A DNA stretch of 54,077 bases from Verrucomicrobiota bacterium (GTDB lineage Bacteria; Verrucomicrobiota; Verrucomicrobiia; Limisphaerales; UBA11358): contig JBEKON010000009.1 in NCBI GenBank assembly GCA_049521735.1, forward strand, positions 1-54,077, in the 5' to 3' direction. Shown here piece after piece: positions 36,641 through 45,841 of this stretch. Under the pieces are notes generated by a model, which was not told the DNA's origin, ran no database searches, and saw only the letters and a list, made by a program, of their open reading frames with translations. Positions within the stretch are counted from its first letter, which is position 1. Every line of letters begins with the position of its first letter. A program made the translations under genes and the position numbers.

Positions 36641-38299
36641 ATGAGATTCGTCATGGAAATTGCGAAGTCCAGCGATTCACTTGAAGCACTCCGGCTCGAA
36701 GCCGAGCAAGGAGATTCCAAGGCGCAAAGTGATTTGGGATTACGCTATTACATGGGCGAGGGCGTAACTAAAGATTTCACGGAAGCTCTAAAATGGTATC
36801 GCAAGGCGGCTGAACAGAACGAAGCGTCAGCACAAAACAGCATAGGTCTCTGTTACGCCAGCGGCCAAGGTGTCAAACAAGACCTGACCCAAGCTGTTCA
36901 ATGGTATCGCTTGTCCGCAGAAAAAGGTAACCGCTGTGGCCAAAACAACCTTGGAACGTGCTATGACGAAGGGCAGGGTATTGCCCAAGATTCGGCTCAA
37001 GCAGTCGAATGGTATCGTCGCGCTGCCGAACAAGGGAACAGCGAAGCCCAAAACAATCTCGCAATTTGTTACGAACAGGGGCGTGGTGTGCAAAAAGATT
37101 TGTCCGAAGCAGCCAGGTATTACCGGCTTGCTGCGGAACAAGGCCACGAATACGCCCAGAGGAATCTCGGCTTGTGCTATCGGGACGGATTGGGTGTTTC
37201 TCGGGATGCAGTCGAGGCCATCAAATGGCTTCGGAAGGCAGCCGATAAAGAATTTGTTCCTGCACAGTTGTCGCTTGTCTTGACTTATAGAAATGGCCGC
37301 GGTGTTCCCAAAGACCAACAAGAAGCACTCAAATGGCTGCGTAAAGCAGCCGAAAATGGAGATGCAAACGCCCAGACTTGGCTGGGGCTCGTGCACTACT
37401 TAGGCCGCGACCTGCCACGCGACTTGGCAGAATCAGCCAAATGGTTTCGGCGGGCGGCTGAAGCCGGAGAGGCTGCTGGCCAATCGAGCTATGGTCGTCT
37501 TTTGTTGACTGGTCAGGGTATCGGCAAAAATCCGATCGAAGCCGTTCAGTGGTTTCGGAAAGCGGCGACTCAAGGAGATGCACACGGAGAATACTGTCTC
37601 GGTGTATGCTACGCTAGCGGACTCGGAACGGACAAAGACTTTGACGAGGCTCGTAGGTGGTTTCAGTTGGCTGCCCGGAAGAATTATTTAGATGCCAAAT
37701 ATCGTCTTCGACTGCTTTTTTTCCAAAAGCATTCGATTTTGAAATGGCGTAACATCGTCATTTCAACTCTTGGTTGCGCACTGCTGATTTTGCATGGAGT
37801 CCGTTTTCCCATTTCAGTCAATGGTTTTGCCATAGCAGCTTTCCTCGGAATTCTTGCCACCAGTGGCGTGGTCTTCATTGCAGCCATGGCATTGATGGAA
37901 AAGTTAGGTGTGAAAGTATTGGATGAAAAGGAGGCAGACGCGATCAATGAGCGGCTTTTTTCTATGTTGAGAAAAGAACCTTGGAGACTTCTGCTCATTC
38001 CAGCAGAGGATGGCGTCTTTCTTTTGCCTCTGCTCTATGTTGGAATTAGCCCCGTCTCGGCTGCCGTGGCAGCTTTCCTTTTTGCGGTGGCTCACTACCC
38101 CGGCTTTCCATGGCGATATTGCATACCCAAGGGCATAGCCTATTTCTTCGTGGCGCTGTTTATTCTTCCCTATGGCATCTGGTCTGTCGTCGTAGCTCAC
38201 CTGATTGTTGATGTCGGCCTATGGGTGGTCATGTTGGTGGTGAAGGTGGAAGGGAAACCGACTTGGCGCCGGCTTCTCCGAGTATTACGAACTGAATGA
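36641..38299 (+). CDS. Sel1-repeat protein fused to a polytopic CPBP-like (CAAX-protease-like) membrane domain
   Basis: About 9 Sel1/SLR repeats (A..WYRKAAEQG...AQ..LG.CY..G.GV..D). These are followed by 5-6 TM helices containing FAVAHY and VVAHLIVD, which resemble CPBP motifs 2 and 3. Confidence 0.75.
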   Translation: MRFVMEIAKSSDSLEALRLEAEQGDSKAQSDLGLRYYMGEGVTKDFTEALKWYRKAAEQNEASAQNSIGLCYASGQGVKQDLTQAVQWYRLSAEKGNRCGQNNLGTCYDEGQGIAQDSAQAVEWYRRAAEQGNSEAQNNLAICYEQGRGVQKDLSEAARYYRLAAEQGHEYAQRNLGLCYRDGLGVSRDAVEAIKWLRKAADKEFVPAQLSLVLTYRNGRGVPKDQQEALKWLRKAAENGDANAQTWLGLVHYLGRDLPRDLAESAKWFRRAAEAGEAAGQSSYGRLLLTGQGIGKNPIEAVQWFRKAATQGDAHGEYCLGVCYASGLGTDKDFDEARRWFQLAARKNYLDAKYRLRLLFFQKHSILKWRNIVISTLGCALLILHGVRFPISVNGFAIAAFLGILATSGVVFIAAMALMEKLGVKVLDEKEADAINERLFSMLRKEPWRLLLIPAEDGVFLLPLLYVGISPVSAAVAAFLFAVAHYPGFPWRYCIPKGIAYFFVALFILPYGIWSVVVAHLIVDVGLWVVMLVVKVEGKPTWRRLLRVLRTE

Positions 38300-39821: not shown

Positions 39822-39927
39822 TTGTCCACGCCGCTTTGTCCGGGTGGAATCCCGCCTTCGCGGCTTGCTTCCGCCTTCATTGCATTTCGGCGTGACGAGT
39901 CGGCGTGGGCTGTGGCTAACTACCCGT

Positions 39928-40230
39928 ATGAACAAGTCCATGCCTTCGCTATTCCAGAGCGTGTGCCTGCGATTGGCGGATGATGTGACCTTTCAATCGC
40001 TGGGACCCGGTGAGGAAACGGTCGTGCTCTCGCTCAACTCCGGCTATCTATATACCTGCAATGAAACTACTGCCGCCTTTTTGCGGGGACTGGACGGCAA
40101 ACAATCACTGGCCGCGGTGATTGACTCGCTCTTTAACGAGTTTCAGGTTTCCCGGGCAACGTTGAGCAAGGACATGACGGCATTAGCAGCAAAGCTGCTG
40201 GAGGAGAAACTCCTCGTTGAAGAACCCTGA
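39928..40230 (+). CDS. PqqD-family RiPP recognition element (lasso B1-like)
   Basis: Internal Met of ORF 39844..40230. ..LADDVTFQSLGPGEETVVLSLNSGYLYTCNETTAAFLRGLDGKQSLAAVIDSLFNEFQVSRATLSKDMTALAAKLLEEKLL is the PqqD pattern. Confidence 0.8.
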   Translation: MNKSMPSLFQSVCLRLADDVTFQSLGPGEETVVLSLNSGYLYTCNETTAAFLRGLDGKQSLAAVIDSLFNEFQVSRATLSKDMTALAAKLLEEKLLVEEP

Positions 40231-40648
40231 ACATACATTTTACGCAGGCCGGCTGCTGTTGCGCGGGCATATCTGGCTGCTGGCAACGCTGATTCCGTTG
40301 CTGGAAAAAATCCTCCCCTTAAAATACTTATTGCGTCTGTTGACACCGCCGCCACGTTTCAAACCCTATGGCGGCATGCTCCCGGAAGAAATCTCCCGGT
40401 GGGTTGCCCACCGATTGCGTCAGCCGCGAAATATGCGCCGGCGCGCCTGCCTGCGGCATGGGCTGACTTTGTTCCACTTCCTAAGGCTGGCGGGCTGCCC
40501 GGCGGTTCTGCACATTGGAGTTTTCCCGCCGCAGTTTGACAGTCGGCGGATGCACGCGCATTGCTGGGTGACCCTCAACGGCGTCTGTTTGATCCCGCCG
40601 CCCGAACAGCCGGCAGCAACTCTCCTGACTTACTGCCCGGCGGAATAA
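40217..40648 (+). CDS. Lasso-peptide B2-type leader protease (transglutaminase-core cysteine protease)
   Basis: 143 aa with a TTG start overlapping the PqqD gene by 14 nt. RRACLRHGLTLFHFLRLAGCPAVLHIGV.......MHAHCWV fits the B2 Cys...His pattern. Confidence 0.8.
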   Translation: MKNPEHTFYAGRLLLRGHIWLLATLIPLLEKILPLKYLLRLLTPPPRFKPYGGMLPEEISRWVAHRLRQPRNMRRRACLRHGLTLFHFLRLAGCPAVLHIGVFPPQFDSRRMHAHCWVTLNGVCLIPPPEQPAATLLTYCPAE

Positions 40649-40766
40649 CATGCGGCAAGAATTGGTACTATGAGCAAATGGTTTGACAGATGCCTGTCAA
40701 ATTGGGACAACACGCACAATTGGATTGGGATTCGAAATTGGCCATCTAAGAACAAGTTTTAATCGT

Positions 40767-40904
40767 GTGAAAACATCAAAAAAACAAACCTTGCCGGAAA
40801 ACAAGAAACAGAAACGCGATTACGTCAAACCGGAGATCAAAAAGCGCGAACAGATCAAGGAAGTCACAGAACAACAAGGCCCCGGGCCCGTCACTGTGGA
40901 GTAG
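40767..40904 (+). CDS. RiPP precursor 1 (leader + core QQGPGPVTVE)
   Basis: GTG start. (M)KTSKKQTLPENKKQKRDYVKPEIKKREQIKEVTE|QQGPGPVTVE. It is the 3' part of track ORF 40683..40904. Confidence 0.7.
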   Translation: MKTSKKQTLPENKKQKRDYVKPEIKKREQIKEVTEQQGPGPVTVE

Positions 40905-40913
40905 AAATGTCAT

Positions 40914-41045
40914 ATGAAAACATCAAAAAAACAAACCCCGCCGGAAAACAAGAAACAGAAACGCGACTACGTTAAACCGGAGATCAAAAAGCGCGAACAA
41001 ATCAAGGAAATCACAGAACAACCAACCCCCGGAACCGTCTTTTGA
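40914..41045 (+). CDS. RiPP precursor 2 (core QPTPGTVF)
   Basis: Own translation: MKTSKKQTPPENKKQKRDYVKPEIKKREQIKEITE|QPTPGTVF*. 43 aa, below the track cutoff. Confidence 0.7.
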   Translation: MKTSKKQTPPENKKQKRDYVKPEIKKREQIKEITEQPTPGTVF

Positions 41046-41059
41046 CATCGAAATACCAT

Positions 41060-41527
41060 ATGAAAACATCAAAAAAACAAACCCCGCCGGAAAACAAGAA
41101 ACAGAAACGCGACTACGCCCCGCCGGAGATCAAAAAGCGCGAACAAATCAAGGAAACCACGGAAGGCACGCCTCCGGTCATCACGCCAGTACTCATATCG
41201 GATCGCAACGCCAAGAAAAACTTCCAATCAGTGGATACCGTGGCCGTGCTGGAAAAGCTGGCTGCCATTCCCGTTGAACGGTGGAATTACAAATGGGAGA
41301 AGGACGGCGATGTGCCGCATCTTGGCCCGATGGCGCAGGATTTCAAAGGCGCGTTTTATCCCGGTCGCGATGACAAGAGCATCAGCACCTTGGAATTCCA
41401 TGGCGTGGAACTGGCGGCGATCCAGGGGTTGAATCAGAAACTGGAAGAAAAGGATGCGGAAATTCAGGCGCTCAAGCAGAGTGTTGCCGAACTCAAACAA
41501 CTGGTTTCGCAGTTGACCCAAAATTAA
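41060..41527 (+). CDS. RiPP precursor 3 fused to a peptidase-S74 intramolecular-chaperone (self-cleaving) domain
   Basis: MKTSKKQTPPENKKQKRDYAPPEIKKREQIKETTE|GTPPVITPVLI|SDRNAKKNFQSVDTVAVLEKLAAIPVERWNYKW....HLGPMAQDFKGAF...LAAIQGLNQKLEEKDAEIQALK. The tail matches the SDxxxK..I...W.YK..GxIAQ.. coiled-coil S74 pattern. Confidence 0.75.
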   Translation: MKTSKKQTPPENKKQKRDYAPPEIKKREQIKETTEGTPPVITPVLISDRNAKKNFQSVDTVAVLEKLAAIPVERWNYKWEKDGDVPHLGPMAQDFKGAFYPGRDDKSISTLEFHGVELAAIQGLNQKLEEKDAEIQALKQSVAELKQLVSQLTQN

Positions 41528-41532
41528 ATTGT

Positions 41533-41670
41533 ATGAAAACATCAAAAAAAGAAACCCTGCCAGAGAATAAAAGGCGGAAGCGGGACTACGCCCAGCCGGA
41601 GATTAAAAAGCGCGAACAGATCAAGGAAGTGACGGAAGGCGGTGGCCCGGTTGTCACAACAAAGGACTGA
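41533..41670 (+). CDS. RiPP precursor 4 (core GGGPVVTTKD)
   Basis: Own translation: MKTSKKETLPENKRRKRDYAQPEIKKREQIKEVTE|GGGPVVTTKD*. Confidence 0.7.
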   Translation: MKTSKKETLPENKRRKRDYAQPEIKKREQIKEVTEGGGPVVTTKD

Positions 41671-41675
41671 ATATA

Positions 41676-41819
41676 ATGAAAACGCCGAAAGAACAAACCC
41701 AGCCGGAGACCGAGAAACAGAAGCGCGACTACGTCAAACCGGACATCAAAAAACGCGAACAAATCAGGGAAGTCACGGAAGGCGACGAAGTGTTTGTCAC
41801 AACAGAGACCAAAAGATAA
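41676..41819 (+). CDS. RiPP precursor 5 (core GDEVFVTTETKR)
   Basis: Own translation: MKTPKEQTQPETEKQKRDYVKPDIKKREQIREVTE|GDEVFVTTETKR*. Confidence 0.7.
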   Translation: MKTPKEQTQPETEKQKRDYVKPDIKKREQIREVTEGDEVFVTTETKR

Positions 41820-41956
41820 TGAAAACATCGGAAAATCAAACCCCGACGGAAAACAAGGAACAGAAGCGCAACTACGTCCAGCCGGAGATCAAAAAGCGCG
41901 AACAGATCAAGGAAATCACGGAAGGCCCGGGCCCAGTCGTCACTGCTACAGGGTAG
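41819..41956 (+). CDS. RiPP precursor 6 (core GPGPVVTATG)
   Basis: The ATG overlaps the stop of precursor 5 (TAATG). MKTSENQTPTENKEQKRNYVQPEIKKREQIKEITE|GPGPVVTATG*. It is the 3' part of track ORF 41642..41956. Confidence 0.7.
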   Translation: MKTSENQTPTENKEQKRNYVQPEIKKREQIKEITEGPGPVVTATG

Positions 41957-41965
41957 AAATATCAT

Positions 41966-42103
41966 ATGAAAACATCCAAAGAACAAACCCAGCCGGAAAT
42001 CAAGAAACAGAAACGCGACTACGCCCCGCCGGAGATCAAAAAGCGCGAACAGATCAAGGAAGTCACAGAATTCCCCTTATTGATCGTTACTCCCGAGAAG
42101 TAA
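41966..42103 (+). CDS. RiPP precursor 7 (core FPLLIVTPEK)
   Basis: Own translation: MKTSKEQTQPEIKKQKRDYAPPEIKKREQIKEVTE|FPLLIVTPEK*. Confidence 0.7.
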   Translation: MKTSKEQTQPEIKKQKRDYAPPEIKKREQIKEVTEFPLLIVTPEK

Positions 42104-42112
42104 AAATACTTC

Positions 42113-42256
42113 ATGAAAACATCCAAAAAACAAACCCAGCCGGAAAACAAGGAACAGAAACGCGACTACGCCCCGCCGGAGATCAAAAAGCGCGAACAAA
42201 TCCGGGAAGTGACGGAAGGCAGTGGCCCAAGCGTCACAACCAAACCGCCGCCGTAA
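42113..42256 (+). CDS. RiPP precursor 8 (core GSGPSVTTKPPP)
   Basis: Own translation: MKTSKKQTQPENKEQKRDYAPPEIKKREQIREVTE|GSGPSVTTKPPP*. Confidence 0.7.
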   Translation: MKTSKKQTQPENKEQKRDYAPPEIKKREQIREVTEGSGPSVTTKPPP

Positions 42257-42381
42257 AGACTTGCAAGCGGTCAACAAAAGACGCTTGTCAGAGCCGTTAG
42301 ATTTCCATCCTTGAGTAGCCGGCTGGTTGCAGCCGGCAAAAACGTTGTTTTCTCGTTCTTGTTTATCCCCTCGAATCAACC

Positions 42382-43371
42382 ATGAGTCCGGCGAAAACAC
42401 ATTACGACTTGCACGGCATGCGAATGACGGTGGAAGCGCCGAGTCAATCGCTGCTGGATGTGATTCATGTGCTTCTGGGCGCTTACGCAGATTCCGGCAA
42501 CGGTGCGGACGGATTCCATGTGAGTCTGGATTACGGGCAGCCACGGCAAAAAGCCGACCCGGGTTTGCATAAATTTTGGACGGGCACACTGCCCAGTGGC
42601 ACCCGGATGATTTGCCGCAGTGGTCCGAACCGGCGGCAGATTGAGATACCGGACCATGTCTGCGCTGACATTGATCTGGCCAAACGCATTGCCAGGATCG
42701 TTGTGAGTCCAGACAACAAAGCCGGCCTGCTGGAAACCTGTTTCCTGCCGTTGCTATGCGATTGTCTCGGGTTGAACGGCCATCATGTGATCCATGCCGC
42801 CAGTCTGTTCGTTCAGGCCGGTGGCCAGCGACGTGCGCTCATCTTCTCGGGCATGAGCGGTCGCGGAAAAACCACACTGGCGCTGGCACTGGCCGGGGCG
42901 GGTCTGGGCATGCTGGCTGACGACATGACTTTTTACCAGGCCGCGACCGCGAACCGGCCGGGACAAATCTGGGGAATCCGAATCCGCTGCAAGGTGCATT
43001 CACGAACGCTTGAGTTGCTCCCCTGGCTGCAAGATTTTCCCATGGGCAGCGTCAGTTCGAATGGCGAGCGGCTTCTGGATATACGGTCATTGAAACCACA
43101 GACAGCCGGTCTGATGGCATCACCGGGATTGATCCTTTTTCTGAATCCGCGAAATGCGGAGTCCCACCAGATTGAGCCGGTGGACAAGGTCACGGCGCTG
43201 ACACGATTGACTCGGGAAAACGTCCGGGCGCTCGATCAGCGCCGCGAGGCCGTGGCAGGCCGGGCCTTTGGAGCGCTGGCGGAGTTGGTGCGTTCCAGCC
43301 GGACTTTCCAAGTCAGCCTCTGCCCGCGTCTGGAAGAATTGCCAGAGCAACTCGCTTCCCTGTGGTCATGA
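42382..43371 (+). CDS. HPr-kinase-like P-loop protein (lasso-cluster-type peptide kinase homologue)
   Basis: HVIHAASLFVQAGGQRRALIFSGMSGRGKTTLALALAGAGLGMLADDMTF matches the HAsav..G.a.lf.G.SG.GKSTLA....G...L.DD pattern of HPrK-related kinases. Confidence 0.7.
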   Translation: MSPAKTHYDLHGMRMTVEAPSQSLLDVIHVLLGAYADSGNGADGFHVSLDYGQPRQKADPGLHKFWTGTLPSGTRMICRSGPNRRQIEIPDHVCADIDLAKRIARIVVSPDNKAGLLETCFLPLLCDCLGLNGHHVIHAASLFVQAGGQRRALIFSGMSGRGKTTLALALAGAGLGMLADDMTFYQAATANRPGQIWGIRIRCKVHSRTLELLPWLQDFPMGSVSSNGERLLDIRSLKPQTAGLMASPGLILFLNPRNAESHQIEPVDKVTALTRLTRENVRALDQRREAVAGRAFGALAELVRSSRTFQVSLCPRLEELPEQLASLWS

Positions 43372-44381
43372 TGTTCCTGAACCAAACCCATTCCCTGCTC
43401 CTGGCGCTGGCGGATCCCCGCGGCCCGGCTGACGCCATTGATTTTGCTCCACCGGCGCCGGTGAAGCTGCGGCGGCTGCTGGAATTGGCGGATCAGCATG
43501 GCGTGCTGGCCATCGTCATGGAAAATCTCAAACAGTTGATAAGCCGGGAAAACGGACAATGGCATTCCTTTCAGCCGGACCCGGCCGTGTGGGAGTGGAC
43601 ACGGCAACGAATGCGGCAGCGGACAGGAATGTCACTCGTGCTGCGCGGGCAGGTCATGGAAATCATCACTCGCATGCAAAAAGCGGGATTGCCGGCAGTC
43701 ATCCTGAAGGGTTGCGATTTTGCCGATCGGCTTTATCCGCATCCGTCGTTGCGCCCGTTCACCGATGTGGACCTGCTGATTCCACAACGGATTCTCCCCG
43801 AAACCCGGCAGGTGTTCAAAGAATTGGGTTATAAGCCGGTCGAGGTGCAAATGAAGCATCAAACCGGTTACGGCGAGGAAAGCTGGCGTCATCCCAATCG
43901 CTCCGGCGGCACGGTGGAGATTCATTGGAACCTGGTGAATTCGCCGTCGCTGCGGCGCGCATTGTCCGTAACGTATGATGACCTGCAACTTGAGACGCAT
44001 CAGAACCAGCCACGCCCCAGCGCTACGGCCACGTTGTTGATCGCGGCGGTGCATGGTGTGGCCAGTCACGGCGTTGACCGGTTGCAAGTGCTTGGCGATG
44101 TGGTCCAGGCTGTTCGCGGGACAGCTGGAACGCTGGACGAAGCCTGGCTTGCTCAAGCCGTTCCCCAAACCGGGACAGACCGTGCACTGGCAACGGCGCT
44201 GGCATTGGCCTATAAAGTGTATGGGGAACCAAACTGTGTGAACCTGATGAAACGCTTGGGGATTGAGCGCCGGGCCTGGCCGGGCAATCTGTTGCTGACC
44301 CGCGGTGTCGTGCTGCGCGCCCACGCTTCGCGCGATTCGTTCCGCCGACAGTTGTTGCGGGAATTGTTAAAACACAAATGA
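43368..44381 (+). CDS. Uncharacterised nucleotidyltransferase family protein (PF14907-like)
   Basis: ..LLELADQHGVLAIV...L.., AGLPAVILKGCDFADRLYPHPSLRPFTDVDLLIPQ. The ATG at 43368 overlaps the kinase stop (ATGA). Confidence 0.7.
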   Translation: MMFLNQTHSLLLALADPRGPADAIDFAPPAPVKLRRLLELADQHGVLAIVMENLKQLISRENGQWHSFQPDPAVWEWTRQRMRQRTGMSLVLRGQVMEIITRMQKAGLPAVILKGCDFADRLYPHPSLRPFTDVDLLIPQRILPETRQVFKELGYKPVEVQMKHQTGYGEESWRHPNRSGGTVEIHWNLVNSPSLRRALSVTYDDLQLETHQNQPRPSATATLLIAAVHGVASHGVDRLQVLGDVVQAVRGTAGTLDEAWLAQAVPQTGTDRALATALALAYKVYGEPNCVNLMKRLGIERRAWPGNLLLTRGVVLRAHASRDSFRRQLLRELLKHK

Positions 44382-45841
44382 ACGTCCTGCTCGTTTATCC
44401 CGCGCCACCGCCTTCGGCCTGGCCCAAGGGCGCTTTTCGTTCCCGCTGGATTCCGTCCGGGCTGGCCTGCATTGCCACCGTGCTGCGCCGGGGCGGGCAT
44501 CGGGTTAAAATCCATCTCTGCGAAGAAACACTGGAACTGAATCATTATGCCCGGGCTGCAGCCCGGGCATCGCTCCAGGCGCAGATGCGGGATTTTCGGC
44601 CCGAGATTGTGGGCTTGTCACTCGTCACCTCCGGTGTGCCCGAGGGTGCAATCGTGGCGGAAGATGCCAAGACATTGCTGGGTCCGCAGACACTGGTGGT
44701 GGCCGGCGGACCGCATCCGACCGTCCTTTCCGAAGAACTGCTGGCTGGTTGCCCGGCCATTGACGCAGCCGTCATCGGCGAAGGCGAACTGACCATGCTG
44801 GAGCTGGCCGATCATGGCCTCTCGCCATCCGTCAGCGGAATCGTGTTGCGCCGCAACGGGACGCTGATGCGCACGCCTCCACGCGCGGCGGTGAAAGACC
44901 TCGACAGCTTGGGGCCTCCCGCCTACGACCTGTTCAACGTGAAACATTTCACGGCGCCAAGCCGGTGGTTGATTCGGTTTCTGAAACTCCCGGCCACCAA
45001 TCTCCGCACGAGCCGCGGCTGTTCTCATCGCTGCAGCTTCTGCGCCGGCCACCTCGTCGCCGGACTGGGCGTGCGCTATCATTCCATCGAATACGTCCTT
45101 GACCAGATGCGCCACGCCGCGACACGCCTCGGCGCAACAGCCATTCGTTTTGAGGACGACACTGTCGGGGCGGATCGTGGAAGATTGTTGGAATTATGCG
45201 CGGCCATCCGCCGGGCCGGTTTGCACAAGCAGCTGAAATGGGAGGCGTGCCTCCGGGTCAATCAGGCCGACGCCGAAATACTAGCCGAGATGAAGGCCGC
45301 CGGCTGCATCCAGGTTGAATACGGTTTTGAAAGCGGCTCGACGGAGTCGCTGCGGCGGCTTGGCAAACAGACGGACATCGAGTTGAACCGGCGCGCCGTT
45401 GAACTGACACGGCGGGCGGGCTTGCGCATTTTCGCGGACATCATGGTGGGTTTGCCAGGCGAGACTCCCGAAGATTTGAAAGCCACAGTGCGGTTCCTGC
45501 GCTGGGCCCGGCCTGAAATTATTTCCGCAGCACGGCTTTGTCCGTTGCCGGGAACACCCATTTACAACAACCTTGATCCCGCCGTGCGGTCAAAGATCGG
45601 TTGGGAAGATTTCAGTTATCCGGACAGCCAGGTGAATCCGGTAAATTTGACAGCCATGCCCGACCGGCAAATCAATGAATTATACCGGAAGTTCATGAAA
45701 TATTCCATTCGTCCGCAAATGACATGGGCATTGCTCCGGGACACACCCGCCGCCGAGCGCCGAAAGCAGTGGCCAATGTGCAAAAACCTGGCCCGATTCG
45801 TCCTGCGCCATCCGCTTAAAGCCATGCGGGTGCCGTGGTAG
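44378..45841 (+). CDS. B12-binding-domain radical SAM enzyme (class B rSAM)
   Basis: N-terminal cobalamin-binding Rossmann region (VLLVYP...GLACIATVLRRGGHRVKI..IVGLSL..VVAGGPHPT) and a CxxxCxxC cluster (SRGCSHRCSFCAG). The ATG overlaps the previous stop (ATGA). Confidence 0.85.
   Translation: MNVLLVYPAPPPSAWPKGAFRSRWIPSGLACIATVLRRGGHRVKIHLCEETLELNHYARAAARASLQAQMRDFRPEIVGLSLVTSGVPEGAIVAEDAKTLLGPQTLVVAGGPHPTVLSEELLAGCPAIDAAVIGEGELTMLELADHGLSPSVSGIVLRRNGTLMRTPPRAAVKDLDSLGPPAYDLFNVKHFTAPSRWLIRFLKLPATNLRTSRGCSHRCSFCAGHLVAGLGVRYHSIEYVLDQMRHAATRLGATAIRFEDDTVGADRGRLLELCAAIRRAGLHKQLKWEACLRVNQADAEILAEMKAAGCIQVEYGFESGSTESLRRLGKQTDIELNRRAVELTRRAGLRIFADIMVGLPGETPEDLKATVRFLRWARPEIISAARLCPLPGTPIYNNLDPAVRSKIGWEDFSYPDSQVNPVNLTAMPDRQINELYRKFMKYSIRPQMTWALLRDTPAAERRKQWPMCKNLARFVLRHPLKAMRVPW

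Follow-up and report, generated by a model that had tools for sequence, protein, structure and literature searches.

A conserved Val/Ile-Thr pair in the cores of a lasso-like precursor array of Verrucomicrobiota: a candidate acceptor site for an HprK-like kinase

The window analyzed here, a 54,077-nucleotide stretch of DNA from a Verrucomicrobiota bacterium, carries on its plus strand a compact six-part operon (39844-45841) that was recognized by domain scans of its open reading frames. A RiPP recognition element (RRE) and a leader peptidase precede an array of eight small precursor genes, which is followed by genes for a P-loop kinase, a PF14907 protein and a B12-binding radical SAM enzyme (Table 1). 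Glycoside hydrolase and Sel1-repeat genes lie upstream, and kdsB, pyrG and a Mur-ligase-family (folC-like) gene lie downstream; these flanks vary among related genomes while the six parts are kept together, and it is on this basis that the boundaries of the operon were set. Domain scans detected no transporter gene between 39844 and 45841, and no match to a signal peptidase family among the operon genes. A lasso cyclase was likewise missing, with no Asn_synthase (PF00733) match in the whole genome (92% complete) and none among the flanking ORFs scanned at related loci.

Table 1. Features of the operon, its precursor genes and the hydrophobic-hydroxyl pair of each core
Feature	Position	Strand	Remarks
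PqqD-family RiPP recognition element (RRE), lasso B1 type	39844..40230	+	PF05402 3.3e-11
Lasso-type B2 leader peptidase, transglutaminase-like Cys protease	40217..40648	+	NF033537 lasso_biosyn_B2, 49 bits
Eight-gene precursor array	40767..42256	+	35-residue leaders, cores 8-12 residues
Precursor 1	40767-40904	+	GTG start; core from 40872
Core 1 Val7-Thr8 (GTC ACT)	40890..40895	+	one residue late
Precursor 2	40914-41045	+	
Core 2 Thr6-Val7 (ACC GTC)	41034..41039	+	hydroxyl at 6 after Gly
Precursor 3	41060-41527	+	runs on into Peptidase_S74 domain from 41198
Core 3 Ile6-Thr7 (ATC ACG)	41180..41185	+	
Precursor 4	41533-41670	+	
Core 4 Val6-Thr7 (GTC ACA)	41653..41658	+	
Precursor 5	41676-41819	+	
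Core 5 Val6-Thr7 (GTC ACA)	41796..41801	+	
Precursor 6	41819-41956	+	
Core 6 Val6-Thr7 (GTC ACT)	41939..41944	+	
Precursor 7	41966-42103	+	
Core 7 Val6-Thr7 (GTT ACT)	42086..42091	+	
Precursor 8	42113-42256	+	
Core 8 Val6-Thr7 (GTC ACA)	42233..42238	+	
HprK/PEPCK-fold P-loop kinase	42382..43371	+	TIGR04352 2e-8, far under cut-off
PF14907 (NTP_transf_5) nucleotidyltransferase-fold protein	43362..44381	+	PF14907 3.9e-35
B12-binding radical SAM enzyme	44378..45841	+	PF02310 + PF04055

On translation, all eight precursors display a leader of 35 residues that ends in Thr-Glu, with 19 positions invariant across the array. Counted from this end, Tyr(-17), Pro(-14), Ile(-12) and Thr(-2) occur at exactly the same spacing in 8/8 precursors, which corresponds to the Tyr/Pro/Leu-or-Ile/Thr spacing of the leaders that B1 and B2 read in lasso systems (PMC10368454). 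The original prediction had assumed cleavage after Thr-Glu, and this is therefore the best-founded assumption for the start of the cores, a B1/B2 pair being encoded in the same operon.

With the cores so delimited, Val or Ile at position 6 followed by Thr at position 7 is found in six of the eight, as had been claimed, and the two departures are those already described, a shift by one residue in core 1 and a reversed Thr-Val in core 2. Within-core shuffling (20,000 shuffles) placed the dipeptide in register in a mean of 0.30 of eight cores, with a maximum of 4 (p <= 5e-5), although this value overstates independence because the paralogues of the array share ancestry. The earlier statement that no core ends in Ser (0/8) also held; the hydroxyl residue is internal in each case, with one to five residues following it.

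The original prediction looked to homologous arrays for the same dipeptide, and it is conserved there. A profile of the eight precursors retrieved 108 small homologous proteins from public data, the named ones among them being from Verrucomicrobiota MAGs, and from these 98 distinct cores were derived. The (V/I)6-T7 pair is present in 53 of the 98, against 4.4 +/- 2.0 in shuffles (maximum 12). Position 7 is occupied by Thr in 66/97 cores and by Ser in a further 7/97, and position 6 by Val or Ile in 59/97, within a family consensus of G-x-x-P-(V/I)-V-T-(T)-x-P-(V). The accompanying claim that nothing else in the cores is conserved was too strong, since Gly1 (60/98), Pro4 (53/97) and Val/Ile5 (52/97) recur among the homologues. 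When cores taken from DNA loci were added to those of the profile homologues, 102 close cores were available, of which 96 have Ser or Thr at position 6 or 7 (shuffle mean 42 +/- 4.7, maximum 58) and all 102 have one of these residues within positions 5-8; as related cores share ancestry, the shuffle figures given for them are descriptive and are not probabilities. The register of the motif depends on the subfamily. In Gly-initiated cores the hydroxyl lies at position 7 (49/60), in the (A/S/T)-Pro subfamily at position 6 (14/18), and in Q-type cores it is mostly preceded by Gly and lacks the hydrophobic residue in front of it. Many cores contain several Thr or Ser residues, Thr7-Thr8 being common, and a C-terminal Ser occurs in 3/102.

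The same operon was found at six MAG loci, with kinases 73-86% identical to that of the window; five of these loci carry the label Verrucomicrobiota or Verrucomicrobiae, and the sixth is labeled Limisphaerales. A peatland origin of the related MAGs is suggested by their SPRUCE and bog isolate names. No match to the precursor profile was obtained in 36 genomes of the same genus and 24 of the same order.

A metagenome search by kinase alignment extended the family to 33 further loci, from which precursors were extracted by an iterated leader HMM, none being picked by eye, to give 33 distinct cores. At loci L019-L029 (kinase identity 35-55%) the operon is recognizable, whole or in part according to the extent of the contig. 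Among the distant cores, (V/I/L)-(S/T) occurs in 30 of 33, its hydroxyl falling within positions 5-9, and 26 have Ser or Thr at 6 or 7, compared to 10.6 +/- 2.5 in shuffles. Gly is the most frequent residue after the motif; in five of the 33 the motif forms the end of the core, and C-terminal Ser is found in 7/33 overall. Some distant leaders contain no other Ser or Thr within their last 22 residues. Three loci (L036, L037 and L046) encode an RRE, B2 and kinase, and a radical SAM gene is missing from the contig stretch examined, absence at such short-contig loci meaning absence from that stretch only; the PF14907 gene was seen at L036 and L037, and the L046 stretch ends inside the kinase gene. 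No lasso cyclase was present among the scanned ORFs of these three loci, and their cores have Ile/Val-Ser-Pro at positions 3-5. The occurrence of the hydrophobic-hydroxyl pair at these loci in stretches without the radical SAM gene argues that the pair travels with the kinase module.

Assignment of the enzymes themselves varies in firmness. The RRE gave weak matches to lasso PqqD models and adjoins B2 in all related loci, and the match of B2 to NF033537 exceeds the 33-bit cut-off, with Cys and His invariant in 14 homologues. The kinase scored 33.6 bits against TIGR04352 (HprK-related kinase A), for which the cut-off is 200 bits, and five relatives scored 28-43 bits; it is far under the cut-offs of both TIGR04352 and TIGR04355. 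Judged by these profile scores, it falls outside any curated family, and its relation to TIGR04352 is one at the superfamily level only. Nevertheless, 16 homologues, the most distant at 27% identity, all retain a His, the S-G-x-G-K-T-T loop, an Asp-Asp pair and a Lys, in agreement with the His-Lys-Asp-Asp residues of lasso kinases (PMC9266682). A kinase homologue modeled by AF2 (pLDDT 90) resembled ATP-dependent PEP carboxykinases (Foldseek E 2e-8), which belong to the same structural superfamily as HPr kinase. A search of 400 genomes of the phylum with the kinase gave only two weak matches, and PDB sequence searches with the kinase and the PF14907 protein gave no significant match. The PF14907 protein, which is of PsmN/LppN type by annotation alone, carries an Asp-x-Asp motif comparable to the catalytic Asp pair mutated in PsmN (PMC6993621). 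For the radical SAM enzyme, the best NCBIfam matches (HpnJ, BchE, ApyD and PhpK) are all far under their cut-offs, and in the PDB it matches AprD4 and TokK best.

Overall, we lean towards Thr7 as the acceptor of the HprK-like kinase in what would be a ring-less, lasso-derived RiPP pathway. Formation of a lasso ring appears impossible here in view of the gene content and the cores, since no cyclase was found in the 92%-complete genome and Asp or Glu is rare at core positions 7-9 (12/102 close and 3/33 distant cores); a ring closed through Asp/Glu was rejected on the same two grounds. The prediction that Thr is the acceptor is supported by comparison to the extent that the motif hydroxyl is the only one kept across the kinase-bearing family, and from this, by analogy with lasso-type kinases, we infer its role as acceptor. 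The chemical steps and their order would then be as follows. The PqqD-type RRE would bind the Y-x-x-P-x-I motif of the leader and present the precursor to the kinase, which would place one or more phosphates on the Thr/Ser hydroxyl at core position 6-7, with the preceding beta-branched residue forming part of kinase recognition. The PF14907 enzyme may decorate the phosphate in the manner of PsmN, which is required for addition of a hexose to a phosphorylated peptide (PMC6993621), and a further modification would come from the B12 radical SAM enzyme. Finally, the B2 protease would cut after Thr-Glu to yield a linear peptide of 8-13 residues.

Two features bear on how literally position 7 should be read. 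Because many cores have several Thr or Ser residues, as in the common Thr7-Thr8 arrangement, the exact acceptor could be a neighboring residue. In addition, the published internal-site kinases are documented on Ser. In the linear polyphosphorylated peptides (LPP) of Bacillota, encoded by cyclase-less lppA-K-B-S-D-N clusters (Popov et al., Nat Commun 2026, PMC13381572), it is Ser3, conserved in the core, that LppK polyphosphorylates, and Thr was not accepted in its place (PMC13381572), so that a Thr-preferring enzyme of the same fold would be an extrapolation; on the other hand, BsfK of Bradymonas sediminis, whose phosphorylation of a conserved internal Ser3 is faster with B1, does accept Thr (PMC10368454). 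Counted from published motifs, the hydroxyl of the present family lies 20 residues past the RRE-binding Pro, versus 15-16 in LPP and Bsf. A more elaborate scheme can be imagined, and we regard it as a long shot, in which the product is an ultrashort linear peptide of a new kind and phosphorylation of Thr7 merely opens the pathway, the PF14907 and B12 enzymes going on to build at Val-Thr a phosphate-linked or C-alkylated group without precedent, so that the arrays would act as a natural library in which the tails vary and the modified pharmacophore stays fixed; or else the hydroxyl might enter a cyclase-independent linkage to the amine of Gly1, as could be supposed from its position (6-8), which is the same as that of the ring-forming acid of lasso peptides.

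Other explanations of the conserved pair must be weighed against phosphorylation of Thr7. The B12 radical SAM enzyme could act on Thr7 or on the preceding Val/Ile, for instance in a beta or gamma C-methylation, with the kinase acting elsewhere or on a different hydroxyl. Methylation of unactivated carbons in side chains is common among B12 radical SAM enzymes of RiPP pathways, as in the beta-methyltyrosine formed by ApyD (PMC10635010), and an enzyme whose gene occurs at all close loci as well as at the distant L019-L029 would be expected to act on a conserved feature of the core, such features being Val, Ile and Thr. However, the pair persists at the three distant loci in stretches without a radical SAM gene, which tells in particular against the original suggestion of Val/Ile6 as target, and with all family matches under their cut-offs the methyltransferase function is itself only putative. 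We consider this explanation unlikely, although it is compatible with action of the kinase, as both enzymes could share the dipeptide. Cross-linking at Val/Ile, also suggested earlier, finds no obvious partner in cores that are without Cys and almost without aromatics; for the same reason, thioether or aromatic cross-links formed by the radical SAM enzyme are unlikely.

It is also conceivable that the dipeptide is not modified at all, and that it serves as a recognition or structural element, perhaps a beta-strand read by B2, by RRE-enzyme complexes or by the target of the peptide, while other, variable residues are modified. The whole G-x-x-P-(V/I)-V-T stretch is conserved along with the Thr, and Val, Thr, Pro and Gly account for 65% of residues in the homologous cores, as would be expected of an extended segment. 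Yet a kinase needs a hydroxyl, and that of the motif is the only one present in every member of the family, some distant precursors having no other Ser or Thr near the core. Moreover, it is Ser, rather than Val or Ala, that replaces Thr in several subfamilies, implying that the hydroxyl is kept and not the shape, and some distant cores end at the motif Ser. A purely structural role thus seems quite unlikely. Shared ancestry or gene conversion among recent duplicates might, finally, conserve the pair in the complete absence of function, and the leaders of the window array, 86% identical at the nucleotide level, do indicate copies that are young or homogenized; the Val codon, too, is GTC in 13/17 sequenced motif copies. 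The flanking core positions have nonetheless diverged freely while the dipeptide was kept. In the window the Thr codon varies (ACT, ACG, ACA) as the residue stays constant, and across the 17 copies the hydroxyl codons are ACA, ACT, ACC, ACG and TCA, which argues for selection on the residue. The motif further recurs in arrays associated with enzymes only 27-55% identical and with cores otherwise unrelated. Ancestry by itself is hardly credible as an explanation and appears to be largely refuted by the distant arrays.

Lasso-derived phosphopeptides without a ring have been known only since 2026, and only from Bacillota (PMC13381572); the Verrucomicrobiota family would carry the idea to another phylum, with another leader peptidase and an added B12 enzyme. 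Cores of 8-13 residues with a single fixed hydroxyl offer an unusually simple system in which the roles of the kinase, the PF14907 protein and the B12 enzyme could be separated. The PF14907 "nucleotidyltransferase" family is widespread yet unexplained, and the cluster provides a way into its role. The prediction is a testable one, the Val-Thr site designating exactly which residue to mutate and which mass shift to look for.

In comparison with known systems, the cluster combines elements that have been described separately. A literature search of limited depth found no description of a cyclase-less, lasso-like cluster containing both a kinase and a radical SAM enzyme. With lasso peptides it shares the leader motif, the B1 RRE and the B2 protease, whereas the cyclase and the Asp/Glu acceptor are absent. 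The paeninodin and pseudomycoidin systems (PadeK, ThcoK, PsmK, PsmN) have in common with it a tailoring module of kinase and nucleotidyltransferase; these are, however, true lasso peptides in which the acceptor is a C-terminal Ser, phosphorylated on the precursor before leader removal (PMC9266682), in contrast to the internal hydroxyl of the window cores. The distinction that the original prediction drew from paeninodin-type kinases is accordingly sound for the window array, none of whose cores ends in Ser, but it is less sharp than supposed, as kinases acting on an internal Ser3 (BsfK, LppK) are already known and seven distant cores of the family end in Ser at the motif position, like the substrates of paeninodin-type kinases. 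The likeness of the window kinase to PadeK, BsfK and LppK was drawn from published descriptions and residues. The Bsf system (BsfK/BsfB1/BsfB2) is similar in its split B1/B2, a Y-x-x-P-x-L-type leader, Gly1 and a HprK-type kinase; it differs in having a cyclase, an Asp8 ring acceptor and a phosphosite at position 3 within the ring region, and in the lack of a radical SAM enzyme. ApyD resembles the B12 enzyme in its combination of B12-binding and radical SAM domains and in its occurrence in a RiPP operon, although the window enzyme scored 123 bits on the ApyD model, for which the cut-off is 750 bits, and no fused RRE was seen in the domain scan.

The closest parallel is with LPP. Both systems have a discrete RRE, a Y-x-x-P leader, an HprK-like kinase and an NTP transferase in lasso-related clusters without a macrolactam cyclase, and in both the core contains one conserved hydroxyl residue a few positions past the cleavage site, which in LPP is the modified Ser3. 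They diverge in the leader peptidase, a lasso B2 Cys protease here and a SipW-like, archaeal-type signal peptidase I (LppS) in LPP, where leader removal is inefficient without LppK (PMC13381572). An MsbA-like exporter belongs to the core set of LPP, whereas none is found in the conserved gene set here, which has a B12 radical SAM enzyme in addition. In place of Ser3, the site predicted here is for the most part a Thr at position 6-7, and the cores comprise 8-13 residues compared to about 45 in LPP, with up to eight precursors per operon. The hosts also differ, being Verrucomicrobiota here and Bacillota in LPP; the authors of that work regard LPP as restricted to Bacillota, with radical SAM enzymes and Verrucomicrobia unmentioned (PMC13381572). 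The cluster thus shares the core logic of LPP, to which it adds a B2 protease, a B12 enzyme, short cores and a predicted Thr site as new features.

One precursor in the array of the window, and one in each of the arrays of two related genomes (L009 and L011), is fused to a self-cleaving Peptidase_S74 (endosialidase chaperone) domain, which begins with a Ser-Asp-x-x-x-Lys motif directly after a core of 11-12 residues. The cores of the two further fusions differ, and Ile-Thr is kept in both. Self-cleavage at the Ser of this domain would yield a precursor of the usual length. Within the window array, precursor genes 5 and 6 overlap at their stop and start codons, respectively (A-TAA-TG, 41817-41821), and the remaining precursor genes are separated by gaps of 5-13 bases.

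Features of the precursor fusions, the upstream gene and the second cassette
Feature	Location	Detail
Precursor-Peptidase_S74 fusion	window 41060-41527	PF13884, 8e-12
Precursor-Peptidase_S74 fusion, related genome	L009:10313-10777	
Precursor-Peptidase_S74 fusion, related genome	L011:10001-10465	
About nine Sel1 repeats in fusion with a membrane domain weakly similar to Rce1/CAAX proteases	window 36641-38299	
PqqD-like ORF, weak	within L052:7295-12019	
Second HprK-like kinase	L052 7609-8715	
Two family-2 glycosyltransferases	L052 8712-10516	
Second PF14907 protein	L052 10937-12019	minus strand

The B2 protease (window 40217-40648) and its homologues share an invariant Cys and His; the position after the His at which the third catalytic Asp is expected varies (Gly, Asp or Glu), and is less well conserved than a more distal Pro-Pro-x-Glu/Asp segment.

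Among the distant relatives, some loci (L021, L025, L028 and L029) encode cores of just 6-8 residues, of which the conserved Ser/Thr is the last; in L021, the radical SAM gene lies directly 3' of the kinase gene, with no PF14907 gene in between. Three loci with no cyclase among their scanned ORFs (L036, L037 and L046) combine RRE, B2 protease and kinase; a PF14907 gene was also seen in the first two, and no radical SAM gene was found in the stretches fetched for them. Their Pro-rich cores carry Ile/Val-Ser-Pro close to the N-terminus, and both precursor genes of L037 are located on the opposite strand, several kilobases from the enzymes.

The Sel1-repeat/Rce1-like fusion gene, 1.5 kb upstream of the operon, is not assigned to the cluster, since tblastn detected no counterpart in the related loci. 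Elsewhere in the same genome, contig C32 (locus L052) carries a second cassette of a different kind, with its own HprK-like kinase, PF14907 protein and glycosyltransferases; neither a B2 protease nor a radical SAM enzyme was detected in it, and no precursor could be recognised.
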